This document shows, in pieces, positions 41,396 through 47,833 of a stretch of 64,000 nucleotides of DNA. The stretch lies in assembly GCA_963674705.1 (NCBI GenBank), contig OY771506.1, positions 896,001 through 960,000 on the forward strand, written 5' to 3'. The translations under genes and the position numbers were made by a program. Every line of letters starts with the position of its first letter. Position 1 is the stretch's first letter. This DNA is from Phycisphaeraceae bacterium (GTDB taxonomy: Bacteria; Planctomycetota; Phycisphaerae; Phycisphaerales; Phycisphaeraceae). The notes beneath the pieces were generated by a model. The model was not told where the DNA came from and searched no databases. It saw nothing but the letters and a program-made list of their open reading frames with translations.

Positions 41396-44300
41396 TCAAT
41401 TCGCGCCCGAATCCATATCATTCGCCGGCCCGGACGCCGAAGTGATATCCGGCTTGATCTCGGTGATTAACTCGGGCGTATCCAGCCAGGCCCGCAACGA
41501 CTCGCGCGTGTCGCGATCGATCAGCGAAGTCAGTGCTTCCGTGGCCTTGTCCATCTCGTCCGGGCTGCGCCAGCAGAAGCTCGACCAATCGACCTGCTTG
41601 AACTCATCCGCCCACTCCCACGCTGACGGGCCGATCTTGTCGACCAGCATTCGCAGCACGTCCGCCTGCATCTCCGGCTTCACATCGAAGTACAGCTTGC
41701 GGAACTCCGCATCCGCCAGTTTCTGTACCGCGCCGGGGTCCTGTTCATACACGAGCACAAGAAGCGCGTCCGTTACCCATATCAATTGCTGCGGTGTGAG
41801 TCGTTGACCTTCTCTCTCGATCAGATCGTCCAGCGCTTTTGACGCAACGGCAAGCGACCGCTGTTTGTACCGAAGCCCCTCCTGGTTGTTCATCTGCGCC
41901 AGCAGGTCCGCAACCAGGTACGTATGGAACGGCACGGGCAGGTTCGGGATAGCCAGTCTGCCGTATCGGCCATCCTCCACACCGAACAGTTCAGCCTTGA
42001 GGAACGGCTCGGCATAAGCCGGGTTCACTTCCTTCCACGCGTGATACATCAACCACGGCCGCGCCTGGTATGCCTCGGACAACGCCTCGCGGTAGTTGAT
42101 CATCGTCTGCTCGGCAGCGCCCATCGGGAAGAAGTCCCGGATGCACAGCGCCGCCGGCGAAATACGCAGTGTGCCCGCGTTCGCCGGGATCTCGTCTTCA
42201 CCCGTGAACAGGTGTTTGCCACGAACGATCAGGTGCGGTTTGATCGGCTGTGGATTGGCGTATTGTAGCCGCGCGATCTGTTCAAAACCCGCCAGGAAAG
42301 ACTCGACATCCGCCTCGACATACTTCGCATACATCTTCGCCCATTCATCAAACATCAGCGGATACTGCGGCGCGACATACGGCCGCAACGCGTACAGCGG
42401 GTCTTCTTCCTCGCGCTCACTGATCTGCTGCACACCCGCCAGCGCCGACGGCAACGGGATGCCGAACGACAACACCGGACGATCGTCTTCAACCGTCGCG
42501 CCGATGCCCGACATCGACATGGTGCTGGATAGATCGTTGCGATCCTTCGCCAGCGCCTCACGCAACACCGGATTAATCAGGTCCAGCGAGCTTTCTCTAA
42601 CCATCAGAGGAGAATTGAATGTCGACCCCTGCGTCGCGGGCAACTTCAACTGCCCGCACCACTGCACAAACTGATCCGTGCTTTCCTTCGTGACCTGCTC
42701 GGTCGTAAACTCGTCGATCAATTGCCCGCTAATAGCGTCGATCGCCTGCAGGCATACACCCGCCGTCGCGCCTTCACCGGTCCATGCACGGCCGACGATC
42801 AACACCGTGCCCGTCATCGTGCGGTGATCGATCGACCGCGGGTCTTGCCTCGTATCATCCAACCAGAAGCGGCGCGTCACGATCGCCATGTCACGATGCG
42901 CCTTGTCCGCCGCTTCGGTCAGGCTCGCCGTCAACGCTTTCGTCTGGTAATACATGCCCAGTTCATCGACCGGCAGGATCGGACCAACCACCAGCAACCG
43001 CGGCGCTTCGCCCGAAACTTCGGCGACGGTGACATCTTCAGGTAATCGCAGGTCCAGATAGTTGCGCAGCGCCGCAACAAACAAATCAGTTTTGTTTTCG
43101 ACCTGGTCCGCTTCGGCACGCGCCAACAGACGCGATCGCCCGGTCGACAAATCCGTCACCCACAGCGACAACACGTTGCCGCCGGGACCGGTCGAATCGA
43201 CGACACGCAAGACTACTTGTGCAGGCGTACCACACACATCATCCATGTGACCGACCAGGGCCTTGCCTTCATCAATATCAACAAAAAACCTTAGCGCCAT
43301 CCGGTCCACGACCGTGATACCGGGCGCATTCTTAAAAGATGCGAGCAGACGTTCGAGCAGGATCGCGGTAGGCTTACCCGTGCCTGCATAACTCAACTCA
43401 GGCATGCCGATCGAAACGTAAAGCCGATCAAGCCCCGGACTCGGCACCACACCGGCGGTTGTCTGGACGCCCGCACAAGGCACCATCACCGGGATCGTGC
43501 CGTAACCATCCACCCACGCATCGGCATGGATCAACGCGTCGGCAGAAGAAGTCCCCGCACGGACCAGTGAAAGCTCATACGAAACAGGTTGGCCGTTGCT
43601 GACATCGGTATCGGTGATGCCCGTGCTGTCGGCAGGCAGCAGCGCAACCTTCGCCACGCTGCCATCGGCATCAATACGATGCACCGCGATCTGCACTTCG
43701 CCTTCGTATCGGTCACGCCCGGCGATCAGGCCCGTGCTGTCCCAGCCGACGTGAACGTTGCCATCGTAAGGCGTCGCCGAAACACCCGTCACGATCGGCG
43801 GCGCCATCGCCACCAGCGTCTGGTCGCGCGATGATGCCGTGGCAAACGTCACCGCACGACTCGCACCGTTTGATCCCATGATCACCGAATGCGCAATCCC
43901 GTTGAACTTCGCTTCGCCCGGGACAAACTTGTAATCCAACACGCCGCCCGCTTCCACAGGCACCACGCCGACCACTTCGCTTCCTGCTGTACCCGTGCGA
44001 CGAAGCAACTGGTTTTGCCATTGCACACGCCAACGGCCGACGCCCTGACTGTCCAGCACGATCCCCGTCGGCACAGATACCGCAGACTCGACAACCACAG
44101 GCAAATCGTTCGGCAAATCAGGCAACACCTGATCGATCGAGCCCGCCGCGGACGCCTGCCACAACAAAACATTTTCCCAACCCGGGGCATCAAGCCGCGC
44201 CTGCAAACGCATCGCCGGCGCTGGTTTGTCCTTCACACCAAGCGTCCAGGTAACACGATCGCCCGCGACCTTCGGTTCAGGCACATGAGCGAAACTGCCG

Positions 44301-45232
44301 GCCGGCGTATCAAACAAACGCTTGCCTTCGCTATCAAATCCTGTCAGCCGATAGTAAAGCAGATTCGCGCCGACAACTTCAGGCACATCATCAAACACTT
44401 CAAACGTCAGCGAACCGGTTGCACGGTTGAATCCATCAACCTTCGCGCGATCGATCTGCTTGAACGGGCCTTGCTCATCCAATGCGCGATAAAGCACAAC
44501 CGAAGTTGCCATGCTCAACCGACTGTCACGAGCACTGGAAGCCGGTTTGAACTCGACGTTGAACGTGTAACGAGAATCATCTGATCTTTCGACATCGATA
44601 TGCACGCCATCCATCGCAACGTCGCTGACTTCGGATGCGCTTGCAGCCGCCCATGTCATGTTGTTGTCTACCGCTTGCTTGCGTGCTTCGACGACAACCG
44701 GTTTGGAATTGTTGTCTTCAGCGACTTCGCCATCACCTACGCCGTACTCCGTCTTGAGCACCTGCACAGCGATCACGATGCCGATGCCGATGGTCAGCAC
44801 CGCGATCCCCAGGCCGATCAACAGTTTTAACTTGCTGCCACCACCGGTTTTAATGCGCATCTCTTTGCCGGCGTACACCTCGTACAGCCGGGTCATGCGG
44901 TCGTCGACTTCCTGTGAAATCGCCTGATCGCTGGATGTGCCGTCGCCCATCGTCGAGCCGCCGCTAGTCTCGCCGCTGCCGCGCGATCGCAGGCGGATAG
45001 AACTTCGGCCCGCGGTGGCGTCACGGGAGCCGGTAGACTCCAAAGCGTCGTTTTCAAGCGATGTGAGGTCGCCGAGGTCCGGTTCGGGCCCTGGGGCGAG
45101 CTGAGGGCTGGTATCCCCAACCTCGGGCACCGTGAGCGTCTTGCGGCAGGACGGACAGCGGACCATCTGCCCTGCCAACTGGTCCGGTGCAGCGAACACG
45201 GATCCGCAACTGCAGGTCACTTGTATCTTCAT
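41396..45232 (-). CDS. Large bitopic membrane protein with N-terminal zinc ribbon and extracytoplasmic beta-rich/FN3-like domains
   Basis: 'CSCG...CPSC' zinc ribbon; single TM 'LLIGLGIAVLTIGIGIVIAV'; FN3-like 'VSATPYDGNVHVGWD...TDTDVSNGQPVSYEL'. Confidence 0.7.
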   Translation of the reverse strand: MKIQVTCSCGSVFAAPDQLAGQMVRCPSCRKTLTVPEVGDTSPQLAPGPEPDLGDLTSLENDALESTGSRDATAGRSSIRLRSRGSGETSGGSTMGDGTSSDQAISQEVDDRMTRLYEVYAGKEMRIKTGGGSKLKLLIGLGIAVLTIGIGIVIAVQVLKTEYGVGDGEVAEDNNSKPVVVEARKQAVDNNMTWAAASASEVSDVAMDGVHIDVERSDDSRYTFNVEFKPASSARDSRLSMATSVVLYRALDEQGPFKQIDRAKVDGFNRATGSLTFEVFDDVPEVVGANLLYYRLTGFDSEGKRLFDTPAGSFAHVPEPKVAGDRVTWTLGVKDKPAPAMRLQARLDAPGWENVLLWQASAAGSIDQVLPDLPNDLPVVVESAVSVPTGIVLDSQGVGRWRVQWQNQLLRRTGTAGSEVVGVVPVEAGGVLDYKFVPGEAKFNGIAHSVIMGSNGASRAVTFATASSRDQTLVAMAPPIVTGVSATPYDGNVHVGWDSTGLIAGRDRYEGEVQIAVHRIDADGSVAKVALLPADSTGITDTDVSNGQPVSYELSLVRAGTSSADALIHADAWVDGYGTIPVMVPCAGVQTTAGVVPSPGLDRLYVSIGMPELSYAGTGKPTAILLERLLASFKNAPGITVVDRMALRFFVDIDEGKALVGHMDDVCGTPAQVVLRVVDSTGPGGNVLSLWVTDLSTGRSRLLARAEADQVENKTDLFVAALRNYLDLRLPEDVTVAEVSGEAPRLLVVGPILPVDELGMYYQTKALTASLTEAADKAHRDMAIVTRRFWLDDTRQDPRSIDHRTMTGTVLIVGRAWTGEGATAGVCLQAIDAISGQLIDEFTTEQVTKESTDQFVQWCGQLKLPATQGSTFNSPLMVRESSLDLINPVLREALAKDRNDLSSTMSMSGIGATVEDDRPVLSFGIPLPSALAGVQQISEREEEDPLYALRPYVAPQYPLMFDEWAKMYAKYVEADVESFLAGFEQIARLQYANPQPIKPHLIVRGKHLFTGEDEIPANAGTLRISPAALCIRDFFPMGAAEQTMINYREALSEAYQARPWLMYHAWKEVNPAYAEPFLKAELFGVEDGRYGRLAIPNLPVPFHTYLVADLLAQMNNQEGLRYKQRSLAVASKALDDLIEREGQRLTPQQLIWVTDALLVLVYEQDPGAVQKLADAEFRKLYFDVKPEMQADVLRMLVDKIGPSAWEWADEFKQVDWSSFCWRSPDEMDKATEALTSLIDRDTRESLRAWLDTPELITEIKPDITSASGPANDMDSGAN

Positions 45233-45562
45233 AATTCACCCGGCAAATTCGATTTAAAAAAATGACACCACCCCGAGCCTGAAAACTGGAGGCACAATAT
45301 GGGTCCAACCAGCCAAGGTCCCGTACACCGCCTCACCCGGCGCACGGATTATACCGGCTACACATCCCCACTTACGGGCATCTAGAGACCTACGTTCGAT
45401 ATTTTGGGGTTTATATTACGTTATCCCCTATTTTACCCAACTTTACATCTCCACACCCCTATGACGTTTAACGTGGGTAAGTGTTCAAAAATTTCATCCA
45501 TGAAGTTCCGGTTAGACGGTCTGATCCGGTTGTATTCGCTCAGATATCGTGTACAGTAGACA

Positions 45563-45796
45563 AAGCAGGGAGTGGAGAAAGACCCCCTGGGAGGGAAGCT
45601 GAGAGGAGAAAACCGTTCTTTTGGGAGAAAGACGGATCGGGAGAAAGTTAGGAGACGGAGAAAGCGCAGGAGGCGGAGAAAGCAGGAGTGGAGAGAGTAG
45701 GAGAGGAGAAAGGCAGGGAAGCACCTTGGGGAGAACAAGCAGGGATGCCCAACTCAGCTTCCAAGACCCTCGGCGAAAGCCGAGGGTTTTTCTTTT
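45563..45796 (+). ncRNA. Candidate GGA-repeat (CsrB/Rsm-like) small RNA
   Basis: 19 GGA and 7 GGAGAAA in ~180 nt; TTGTAT-N16-TACAGT upstream; GAAA-tetraloop terminator at the 3' end; no credible ORF. Confidence 0.6.
45764..45796 (+). terminator. Intrinsic terminator ending the GGA-rich unit
   Basis: ACCCTCGGC-GAAA-GCCGAGGGT followed by TTTTCTTTT. Confidence 0.88.
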
Positions 45797-46144
45797 GTCA
45801 ACCCCAACGACTTATCCACCACCCAACAGGCGCACAGCCCTGTCGTGATTGAACGCTATGCGCACGTTGAGGACAGGCACAAAACACCGTTGATGGATGC
45901 CCTTTTACCGGGTTCATGCGCGCAGCCTGTCACACGCACTCGACTTGCTCGCGAGGATCGTATAGTGCATGGCCGCCACGATGAAGTGGCGATCGTAAAG
46001 GATGTCATTGCTTATATGGCTTGAGGTGCTGGGGTGTCGGGTGATACATCCCGGTTATGCGGCAGTGATGGGTGTGTGGCCGTATGATGATTGGTATACT
46101 CGCTAAGAGATTTCAATACTCGAACACAACACCGGGAAAACCGA

Positions 46145-46597
46145 ATGGAGCCGAACTCTTTAGGTGACTCAATCCATCAACAGATAGAGGACCTTTGCTC
46201 CCTTGGGGACAGCCAGGTTGAACAAGGCAACCTGAAGATAGCACTTAAGTCATATCATGATGCACTTCATTTGCTACCTGAACCGGTCGAAGACTGGGAG
46301 GCCGCCACTTGGATCTACACGGCCATTGGCGACCTGTATTTCCAAGCAAGACAATTTTCAGATGCGATAGAAGCACTCAAGGCGGCGGTGCGATGTCCGG
46401 GTGGATTAGGCAATCCATTTATTCATCTGAGGCTTGGTGAATCACATTATGAATTGGGTCACGAGGATCTGGCAGCAGACGAATTAACCAGAGCATATAT
46501 GGGGGCCGGACGAGATATATTTGCAGCCGAAGACCCTAAGTACATAGACTTTTTAGCCACGCGGATTAAACCGCCTACCGGACAAGAACATTTGTAA
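46145..46597 (+). CDS. TPR protein of the type found in toxin-immunity islands
   Basis: TPR helices; 'GNPFIHLRLGE..YELG....A.DELTRAYMGAG..IF..EDPKY'. Confidence 0.72.
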   Translation: MEPNSLGDSIHQQIEDLCSLGDSQVEQGNLKIALKSYHDALHLLPEPVEDWEAATWIYTAIGDLYFQARQFSDAIEALKAAVRCPGGLGNPFIHLRLGESHYELGHEDLAADELTRAYMGAGRDIFAAEDPKYIDFLATRIKPPTGQEHL

Positions 46598-46691
46598 CTG
46601 GATACGGTAATAATCGGGAGATGTACTTTATCAGTTTGTGAACACAGTGTGGCACCCGACTAAACAGCGCCGCAAACCAGGGGCAATTGAA

Positions 46692-47171
46692 ATGCAAGGG
46701 TTGGAACAGATAATTGAGTTGATTAAAGAAAATCAGGGTATCGCAGAGTTCGCTAACTTTGGTGACGGAGCTAGTGATGAATGGATTACCAAAGCCGAAG
46801 AGGCGATCGGTTGCCCCTTGCCCGATAGCTACAAATGGTGGTTTGCGAAATACGGTGGCGGAGAGATTGGAGGCGAAGAAATCTTCAGCGTTTATGAAGA
46901 AGACTTCGATGAGGTTGTAGGTGGAGACGTGGTTTACATGTATCGCCTCGATGCTGAAGAGAATAAGCGAAAATACAGAATCCCGATCTGCCACAGTGAC
47001 GTTGATGGAGTCTTTGCTTTCAACGTTCAACAAGGAGTTTCAAATAACGAGTATTCAGTGGTGAGTGAAGCAACCGGAACGAAATACGCTGAGAATTTTT
47101 TGGATTTTTTGGTTAAGCGAATTGCATGCTTCAAGGAACGACGCGGGCTCTGCCCCTCCCCGCTTTCGTGA
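46692..47171 (+). CDS. SMI1/KNR4 (SUKH) immunity protein
   Basis: 'GASDEWITKAEEAIGCPLPDSYKWWFAKYGGG' and C-terminal 'YAENFLDFL'. Confidence 0.85.
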   Translation: MQGLEQIIELIKENQGIAEFANFGDGASDEWITKAEEAIGCPLPDSYKWWFAKYGGGEIGGEEIFSVYEEDFDEVVGGDVVYMYRLDAEENKRKYRIPICHSDVDGVFAFNVQQGVSNNEYSVVSEATGTKYAENFLDFLVKRIACFKERRGLCPSPLS

Positions 47172-47222
47172 TGTAAGGGCCGAGGACATAGATAACAGTT
47201 AAATTCCTGCGGTAGACGCGCA

Positions 47223-47531
47223 ATGGAAAAATTTGATTTAGATTGCGGCAGTGCAACGCCGGAGGCGTACGACGATGTGAGCAAAGAGGCGCTGCACATT
47301 CTCAATGTATACTTCATCGACGATGTGAACAGGAACCGAGTGGTCAATTTCGCCTGCGCAAGAGTCTTGCACTTTCACAAACACCTACCCAAAGGCAGTT
47401 CTCAAAGAGTTATATTCGATCTGAGGGGGCAACCGGTTGGTAACAATAATTTGGAATCGGCGCGAATGGCGATTGAACAAGAAGCTGTGAAGTATGGAAT
47501 CCGAATCTCCGTCGAATTCTTAACGAGTTAG
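47223..47531 (+). CDS. Hypothetical protein, possibly a degenerate restriction-endonuclease-fold toxin tip
   Basis: 102-aa ORF; 'HLPKGSSQRVIFDLRGQ' recalls C-termini of polymorphic nuclease toxins (from memory). Confidence 0.45.
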   Translation: MEKFDLDCGSATPEAYDDVSKEALHILNVYFIDDVNRNRVVNFACARVLHFHKHLPKGSSQRVIFDLRGQPVGNNNLESARMAIEQEAVKYGIRISVEFLTS

Positions 47532-47533
47532 TT

Positions 47534-47833
47534 ATGGCGTATAACTTTACCGCTGAGAATCTTGGCAAGCAGGACCTACATGCCCTGGGAAAACGACTGT
47601 CTGAGTACAGCTTAATCGAGTTTTTTCCTGTTGAAGTATCCGCCGCGTCGCTTACATTGGGAATTTCTGTCCCGTTCAAAGCAATAGGCGATCCGGGATT
47701 TAGAACAGAGATCGAAAATGCGATGAGCTATTTGGTGACGGAGCAAGGATTCGTAGTAACCGATCTCTACACCGGCAACACAATCGCTCCCAGCGATATC
47801 CCCGGCTTGGCTCAACAGATCTCAAGGGGATAA
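47534..47833 (+). CDS. Small hypothetical protein
   Basis: 99-aa ORF starting 2 nt after the upstream stop; same AT-richer composition as its neighbours. Confidence 0.6.
   Translation: MAYNFTAENLGKQDLHALGKRLSEYSLIEFFPVEVSAASLTLGISVPFKAIGDPGFRTEIENAMSYLVTEQGFVVTDLYTGNTIAPSDIPGLAQQISRG

Follow-up and report, generated by a model that had tools for sequence, protein, structure and literature searches.

The closest described counterparts of the locus reported here are the small RNAs (sRNAs) CsrB/CsrC (RF00018) and RsmX/RsmY (RF00195)/RsmZ and, on the protein side, the FliW-CsrA-flagellin switch of Bacillus subtilis, Campylobacter jejuni and Geobacter sulfurreducens. The sponge-RNA and FliW mechanisms have been called mutually exclusive (PMC7366521), and sRNA control of CsrA was assigned principally to Gammaproteobacteria in a 2026 paper that gives no characterised Csr sRNA in G. 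sulfurreducens (PMC13407953). C. jejuni titrates CsrA with the leader of flaA mRNA and not with a separate gene (PMC4894983). Planctomycetes were listed among possible FliW users in a paper that left inhibitory sRNAs in FliW species open (PMC4682653), CsrA is common in Planctomycetota (PMC13443453), and RsmA-regulating sRNAs have been predicted, unvalidated, in Geobacter sulfurreducens and Oceanobacillus iheyensis (PMC5568370, Table 2). No planctomycete Csr sRNA was found in the literature searched, with supplements and most subscription journals outside its scope. In this study we analysed a 64,000-nucleotide (nt) stretch of a Phycisphaeraceae bacterium (GenBank assembly GCA_963674705.1, contig OY771506.1, positions 896,001 to 960,000), called the window below, in which an RNA gene and its control regions occupy positions 45501-45796 of the + strand. 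The element is single-copy and predicted to be non-coding. We regard it with high confidence as a real, undescribed and lineage-restricted non-coding RNA gene, and its sequence features make a sponge for CsrA-family proteins its probable role.

Several properties are shared with CsrB/CsrC and RsmX/RsmY/RsmZ. The RNA is stand-alone and purine-rich, ends at an intrinsic terminator, carries ANGGAN loops and belongs to a genome with CsrA. Its size lies within the 100-400 nt range of Csr/Rsm sRNAs (PMC7366521), and its 13-19 GGA triplets among the 11 same-genus genomes compare with 22 in CsrB and 14 in CsrC. It differs in the dominant repeat, which is GGAGA(AAG) here as opposed to CAGGA(U/A/C)G in CsrB/Rsm, in a long-range stem that encloses the repeats, in the presence of FliW and in its phylum, Planctomycetota. 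A preliminary description of this DNA had likened the layout to CsrB/Rsm; taken as family membership, the comparison fails and was ruled out, since there is neither a homology or model match nor a UvrY/GacA protein. An Rfam search gave no match (best RsmY, 12.1 bits, E 7.1, cut-off 57), the loci of three relatives gave no gathering-level Rfam match while E. coli CsrB scores 380 bits, and the CsrB model RF00018 found nothing in 5/5 genomes. The UvrY/GacA orthologue is absent from the genome (NF007018 reaches 55 bits at best, the cut-off being 280), and no GacA-box-like site lies near the locus, the window holding 6 matches where 9.4 are expected by chance. RsmV and RsmW are likewise without GacS-GacA-type activation (PMC7366521).

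The likeness to the FliW-switch species is of another kind, as the fliW-csrA-flagellin locus, the residues I51/N55 and a flagellin hexaloop are all present here; no dedicated sponge RNA has been found in those species. The predictions of PMC5568370 are similar in that they, too, are intergenic, rich in GGA and closed by a terminator, and were put forward as antagonists of CsrA beyond the usual class; they are about 70-90 nt long and from other phyla, with no planctomycete in Table 2 of that source, whereas the RNA described here has comparative support from 13 sequences. An independently arisen sponge that coexists with FliW is the most likely reading.

The evidence for a gene comes from comparison with relatives. 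BLAST detected the element in 10/10 genomes of the genus (74-97% identity), and 30 other relatives gave no comparable match. Of 144 Phycisphaeraceae genomes, 12 exceeded 150 bits with a covariance model, namely this one, the ten of its genus and one of another genus (G082). The RNA thus spans two close genera, with one full copy in each of the 12 genomes, a second match in G008 being a contig overlap. The remaining family genomes reached 21 bits or less, and nothing outside the two genera exceeded that score with a model built from 11 sequences of close relatives and about 20 candidates scored per genome. Among 150 sampled genomes of the order, only the three members of this genus scored. An exact core pattern was found in 11 records among a collection of 185,579 species, ten of them titled as Phycisphaeraceae, Phycisphaerales or Planctomycetota and the eleventh as an uncultured bacterium; similar patterns matched one metagenome contig, and viral contigs gave no match to the RNA patterns. 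The matches listed for a GGAGA-triplet pattern in 144 family genomes and for a CANGGANG-triplet pattern in 301 phylum genomes were mostly coding or dispersed tandem repeats, and unrelated sponge RNAs are thus neither demonstrated nor excluded by them.

Conservation of the RNA is far above neutral. In six distant relatives the 5′ domain is identical at 58-60 of 61-62 sites and the 3′ domain at 46-51 of 50-53, or about 95% for both, compared with 43-50% at fourfold-degenerate positions of the neighbouring gene and 47-56% in the protein that it encodes. The conserved stretch begins some 30 bp ahead of the -35 box and ends at the U tract. RNA length varies from 189 to 229 nt among the 11 same-genus genomes, with repeat-unit-sized insertions and deletions in the middle that are not multiples of three. 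The preliminary description had named a conserved overlapping reading frame as evidence against an RNA; no frame is kept on either strand, and the 101-amino-acid (aa) minus-strand open reading frame (ORF) overlapping the tract is lost even in G004 (97% identical). The gene upstream is divergent, as noted earlier, and flanks the RNA in 8/10 same-genus genomes and in G082, with a variable downstream side; G009 has other genes there and the contig of G005 is too short. In five other genomes (G016, G148, G117, G084, G069) the orthologue of this neighbour faces a gene that we identified by eye from its sequence as xylose-isomerase-like, with no GGA array, and G066 has no GGA array either. Because these five genomes of other genera hold the xylose-isomerase-like gene at the same position, the RNA seems to have been gained in a single lineage.

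The control regions (Table 1) are also conserved. TTGTA and TACA(G/T)T, separated by a spacer of 16 nt, are present in 13/13 sequences, which supports a sigma-70-type promoter. A generic promoter scan did not list this promoter, and its support comes from conservation and from the genome's own tRNA promoters: TTG-N3-N16/17-TANNNT lies upstream of 24/78 tRNA genes, with a shuffle mean of 1.8 and a maximum of 6 in 200 shuffles, and 12 of the 24 matches have the 16-nt spacer. Sigma-28 and extracytoplasmic-function (ECF) spacings, compared by eye with the promoter, did not fit. The upstream box is kept in 13/13 sequences and the DNA further upstream is not. A matrix made from it scores 35 bits here, at its training site, and at most 21 elsewhere in the genome, so there is no second site; the same scan revealed no regulon, and a match near flagellar genes falls inside a coding region. 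At the other end, the GAAA-loop terminator with its U tract was confirmed, with compensatory changes in 3/10 stem pairs (13 cells) and at least four U after the stem on the + strand in 13/13 sequences. The internal stems are invariant, which makes covariation uninformative for them; the letters of the long-range stem do not vary except in one misaligned row, so that covariation speaks neither for nor against it, and the 5′ hairpin has no compensatory change, in an alignment where three rows are out of register. The stems carry G-U variants that agree with the + strand, and the minus strand has the promoter pattern in 1/13 loci and no conserved terminator or U tract. One hairpin of the preliminary description, CTTG/CAAG, is not conserved, most relatives being without one A. 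A stand-alone + strand RNA of about 230 nt in a planctomycete with CsrA, as first proposed, is well supported by the conservation, the promoter and the lack of an ORF.

Table 1. Features of the RNA locus and its divergent neighbour, in window coordinates.
Feature	Position	Strand	Remarks
Conserved upstream box	45501..45529	+	Consensus ~TGAAGTTCCGATTAAACCG...CCGG; adjoins -35 hexamer; candidate regulator site
Sigma-70-type promoter	45530..45557	+	TTGTAT-N16-TACAGT; hexamers conserved
Predicted non-coding RNA, ~230 nt	45564..45796	+	Start inferred from -10 box
5′ hairpin with (G)GGAGAAAG loop	45566..45589	+	Folds in this genome and relatives
10-bp long-range stem closing repeat domain	45594-45603 with 45753-45762	+	Predicted fold
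Invariant hairpin, GGGA(G) in loop	45613..45635	+	8/8 pairs never vary, 13 sequences
Array of GGAGA / GGAGAAAG units	45640..45712	+	Largely unpaired; unit number differs between species
CsrA-type hexaloop 1	45713..45722	+	GC-AGGGAA-GC; 13/13 sequences
CsrA-type hexaloop 2	45739..45748	+	GC-AGGGAU-GC; 13/13 sequences
Intrinsic terminator	45763..45796	+	GAAA-loop hairpin 45763-45790, then U tract
Divergent neighbour, 1278-aa protein	41396..45232	-	N-terminal cysteine motif, no Pfam family; outside the RNA, given as context

RNA libraries add a weak hint of transcription. The analysis covered four RNA libraries from four studies (wastewater, wetland, marine and estuary) out of 17 sequencing runs. 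In three of them a single whole contig without a loose end was recovered, 181 nt long at 45577-45757, 176 nt at 45577-45749 and 171 nt at 45581-45751. From the fourth library came two short contigs that lie inside the RNA, one of which is joined near the 5′ end to an apparent sequencing adapter. No RNA-library contig lay on the promoter or the flanks, and the contig pattern is as expected of a discrete RNA.

The composition of the tract identifies the word under selection. The 19 GGA, 7 GGAGAAA and 6 ANGGA counted in the preliminary description were exact for 45530-45800, which also holds 11 GGAGA, and the purine fraction is 0.77 over 45566-45750. In the 5.54-Mb genome, this is the densest 200-nt window for GGAGA (11, next 5) and for GGAGAAA (7, next 2), and neither count was reached in any of 2000 dinucleotide shuffles. 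GGA alone is only modestly above shuffles (54/2000 reach 19), a simple heptamer repeat elsewhere in the genome has 21, and 6 ANGGA per 200 nt are unexceptional in this genome. Since GGA alone is modest against shuffles and GGAGA and GGAGAAA are extreme, the selected word is GGAGA(AAG) and not merely GGA. Long simple tandem repeats of 7-mer and 9-mer units lie between genes at 2811400-2811650, 2617700-2617800 and 3487480-3487600 of G000:C1, and many Planctomycetota genomes abound in related dispersed repeats, which are purine-rich and contain CACGGAG-like words.

The argument for CsrA rests mainly on two GC-ANGGAN-GC loops near the 3′ end of the RNA, 23-26 nt apart in 13/13 sequences. The sole change in hexaloop 1 is at the N of ANGGA (2 rows of 13) and the sole change in hexaloop 2 at the base after GGA (1 row of 13), which are the same two positions, N and X, that are free in the published high-affinity ANGGAX hexaloop (PMC4005645). 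Two GC-ANGGAN-GC occurrences, a pattern chosen after seeing the RNA, were reached in 0/10000 shuffles, and the looser CANGGANG in 286/10000. Among 240 GC-ANGGAN-GC sites in the genome, the hexaloops of the RNA are the only pair within 10-40 nt. The repeat units are less typical. GGA occurs in A(N)GGA context in 12/19, 9/14 and 8/13 cases in three genomes, as against 19/22 in CsrB and 13/14 in CsrC, and GGAG makes up 15/19 of the GGA in the RNA and 4/22 in E. coli CsrB. Most GGA units are single-stranded or in loops lacking A, and RsmE recognises the 5′ A of its site specifically (PMC4005645). Judged by their sequence, the GGAGAAA units fit CsrA less well than the hexaloops do. CsrA homologues differ in their site requirements (PMC13443453), which makes a shifted motif for one of the paralogues, CsrA2, plausible. 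The titration of CsrA proposed in the preliminary description stands as the best mechanism, its best evidence being two hexaloops that had not been singled out, while the GGAGAAA units on which it had been built fit less well.

The host has the proteins for such a mechanism. CsrA was found in 41/41 and FliW in 38/41 genomes searched, and three CsrA genes of this genome pass the PF02599 cut-off, the count that the preliminary description had called for; by alignment, the host has CsrA with intact RNA-binding residues. The gene for CsrA1, whose best match is the CsrA chain of entry 5dmb, lies between fliW and the flagellin gene in an intact locus (L001:138-3156; G000:C1:2264130-2267355) kept across the order. 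CsrA1 has I51 and N55, and C. jejuni requires the residues at the V51/N55 positions to bind FliW (PMC7829508). In 26/26 leaders located from 32 csrA1 loci, the flagellin ribosome-binding site lies under a C-ANGGA(G/A)-G hexaloop, which in this genome has the strongest stem among 27 such hairpins at start codons. CsrA2, an orphan of 71 aa with an insertion of four residues, keeps L2, L4, R6, R7 and R44; in 11/11 RNA-bearing genomes K and E take the places of I51 and N55. Without FliW-binding residues, it would have no known antagonist. Leaders of csrA1 with GC-WNGGAN-GC occur in 11/11 RNA-bearing genomes and 9/23 others, and leaders of csrA2 with two GGA hairpins in 11/11 and 1/15. The csrA2 hairpins (L002:1420-1503; L191, L196-L204) are GGTC-AGGA-GACC over the ribosome-binding site and CTC-AGGAY-GAG upstream of it, a pattern that suggests a gain of csrA2 autoregulation in this lineage, and because kin are not independent the csrA-leader counts amount to one evolutionary event. 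Hfq and TRAP were not found in this genome, which is 96.6% complete. CsrA3 (L003:1501-1797) is divergent and lies in an island-like region beside a HisKA_3 kinase and a YflT-domain gene; its probable counterpart within the genus is in G004 only, and it looks acquired. Separately, ten insertion-sequence copies (e.g. C1:366947 and 962974) carry a 128-aa transposase-like ORF with a C-AAGGAG-G hexaloop over its ribosome-binding site, so CsrA might repress this element.

The repeat word also occurs at ribosome-binding sites of PEP-CTERM genes, whose regulators remain to be found (PMC1569441). In the set of genes that have GGAG ahead of the start codon, called by a crude script, GGAGA[AG]A stood at the ribosome-binding site of 46/216 PEP-CTERM genes and 23/919 others (p 2.6e-19), and in 31/156 against 7/185 when matched for signal peptide and A+T content. 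Single PEP-CTERM leaders share 11-14 nt with the units of the RNA, which points to an RNA that may imitate PEP-CTERM mRNAs. GGAGG is found in 110/216 PEP-CTERM genes, and purine runs are favoured generally. In much of the family the PEP-CTERM ribosome-binding pattern is more frequent than its control, and co-evolution of the RNA with the motif was considered and found unsupported (6/27 leaders in genera without the RNA, 6/20 with it). By a crude motif count there are about 340 PEP-CTERM genes in this genome, and GGAG plus four purines occurs in 76/216 PEP-CTERM genes and 38/919 others.

Our preferred reading is as follows. A sigma-70-type promoter with its upstream box would drive an RNA of about 230 nt that ends at its own terminator and serves as a sponge for translation repressors of the CsrA family. 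The two ANGGAN hexaloops appear to be spaced so as to engage a single CsrA dimer through both of its RNA-binding faces, and 11-17 additional GGA words, imitations of ribosome-binding sites, may also bind CsrA dimers; titration of CsrA would then free its target mRNAs. The likely main client is CsrA2, with RNA-binding residues kept and FliW-binding residues missing. The flagellar CsrA may also bind the RNA, because the hexaloops match its apparent target sites. CsrA binding, the choice of paralogue, the target mRNAs and the inducing signal are inferred. A number of observations weigh against a CsrA sponge. The hexaloops rest on two closing pairs each, so that the fold of hexaloop 1 would be weak without protein, and single-sequence folding leaves only 3-9 of the 13-19 GGA mostly unpaired. 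Seven of the 19 GGA are without a 5′ A, including the invariant YGGGAGAAAG loops at the 5′ end, and GGA is barely enriched over composition in two relatives (703/2000 and 619/2000 shuffles reach the count). The sequence conservation seems higher than a loose GGA sponge needs. CsrA2 and the GGAGA[AG]A ribosome-binding site occur family-wide while the RNA is found in 12/144 genomes, so most relatives manage without it. GGA hairpin loops are depleted in PEP-CTERM leaders (16/216 against 139/919 others). Lastly, the RNA-library contigs have low coverage (a depth of about 3 in the three long ones), carry no strand information, come from relatives and may derive from DNA.

The invariant YGGGAGAAAG loops without the canonical A, together with the GGAGA[AG]A enrichment at PEP-CTERM sites (also after matching) and the stretches shared with PEP-CTERM leaders, would also be expected if the RNA mimicked these ribosome-binding sites to titrate another RNA-binding protein, with CsrA bound at most to the two hexaloops. 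We consider this unlikely, as both hexaloops are textbook CsrA sites that match the leaders of the CsrA locus, no candidate protein turned up in a genome where neither Hfq nor TRAP was found, the motif is equally common in genera without the RNA, and the high share of GGAGG shows that PEP-CTERM genes have strong purine-rich sites generally. The preponderance of GGAG among the GGA also raises the idea of a decoy for the ribosome (30S or S1) made of tandem Shine-Dalgarno-like sites. The tail of the 16S gene is complementary to AGAAAGGAGG, and the best window of the RNA pairs with it at -13.5 kcal/mol, the 5th percentile of 800 sampled gene starts being weaker at -11.1. Shuffled sequences, however, pair as well or better (mean -15.5), GGAGG is not enriched, and across the 13 sequences the exact complement AAAGGAG occurs 0 times and AAGGAG once. 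An ATG after the last GGAG, present in 12/13 rows, opens a frame into the terminator that is shifted in G009 and lost in G010, and a ribosome decoy is in our view very unlikely.

Little probability also falls to a partner that pairs with the repeats, either an anti-Shine-Dalgarno sRNA sponged by the RNA or a functional minus strand with CUUUCUCC seeds against PEP-CTERM mRNAs. By construction the minus strand complements PEP-CTERM ribosome-binding sites, this genome has a weak terminator-like site on it, and a sigma-54 gene is present; that terminator-like tail is nevertheless lost even in G004, the minus-strand promoter pattern is confined to one locus and the G-U variants of the stems fit the + strand. 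Crude screens of 260 terminator-preceding non-coding stretches and 10 sigma-54 sites gave no convincing partner. Least probable of all, and to be given very little weight, is a purine-rich repeat element or small protein gene with no regulatory RNA role. GGAGA-type dispersed tandem repeats are common in Phycisphaeraceae, some of them just past the terminator in several relatives, and the 101-aa minus-strand ORF overlaps the tract. Yet the element is single-copy in each genome, unlike dispersed repeats of the REP/BOX type, it has a conserved promoter and terminator of its own and is conserved far above neutral, and the ORF does not survive in G004. The GGAGA-type tandem repeats of the family could have been the raw material of the RNA.

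Within the CsrA sponge reading, a bolder version is conceivable, which we hold to be doubtful. The RNA would be a two-site Csr sponge, with the hexaloops serving the flagellar CsrA and the GGAGAAAG units, which copy PEP-CTERM sites, titrating a FliW-insensitive CsrA paralogue of shifted specificity. If this were true, one RNA would couple motility to the translation of a large family of exported surface proteins and would represent a living intermediate between protein (FliW) and RNA control of CsrA. A conserved sponge beside an intact fliW-csrA-flagellin locus would, if true, break the rule of mutual exclusivity and indicate that sponge RNAs can arise independently. The question of sRNAs in FliW species thereby becomes testable with a 190-nt RNA and two proteins of 70-90 aa, in vitro or in E. 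coli/B. subtilis reporters, and the locus would offer a first lead on post-transcriptional PEP-CTERM control outside Proteobacteria.

The DNA downstream of the terminator has features of its own. Directly behind it, at 45804-45870, lies a dispersed repeat of about 60 bp (TTATCCACCAC...GCGCAC...GTCG(T/C)GAT...GCGCAC) with 23 further BLAST matches in this genome, many in G004 and none in the other same-genus genomes. It starts with a DnaA-box-like word. Positions 46091-47833 hold small AT-rich genes (a TPR protein, a SUKH/SMI1-KNR4 immunity-type protein and unknowns), a gene run common to G004 only among the compared loci, at a variable insertion site.

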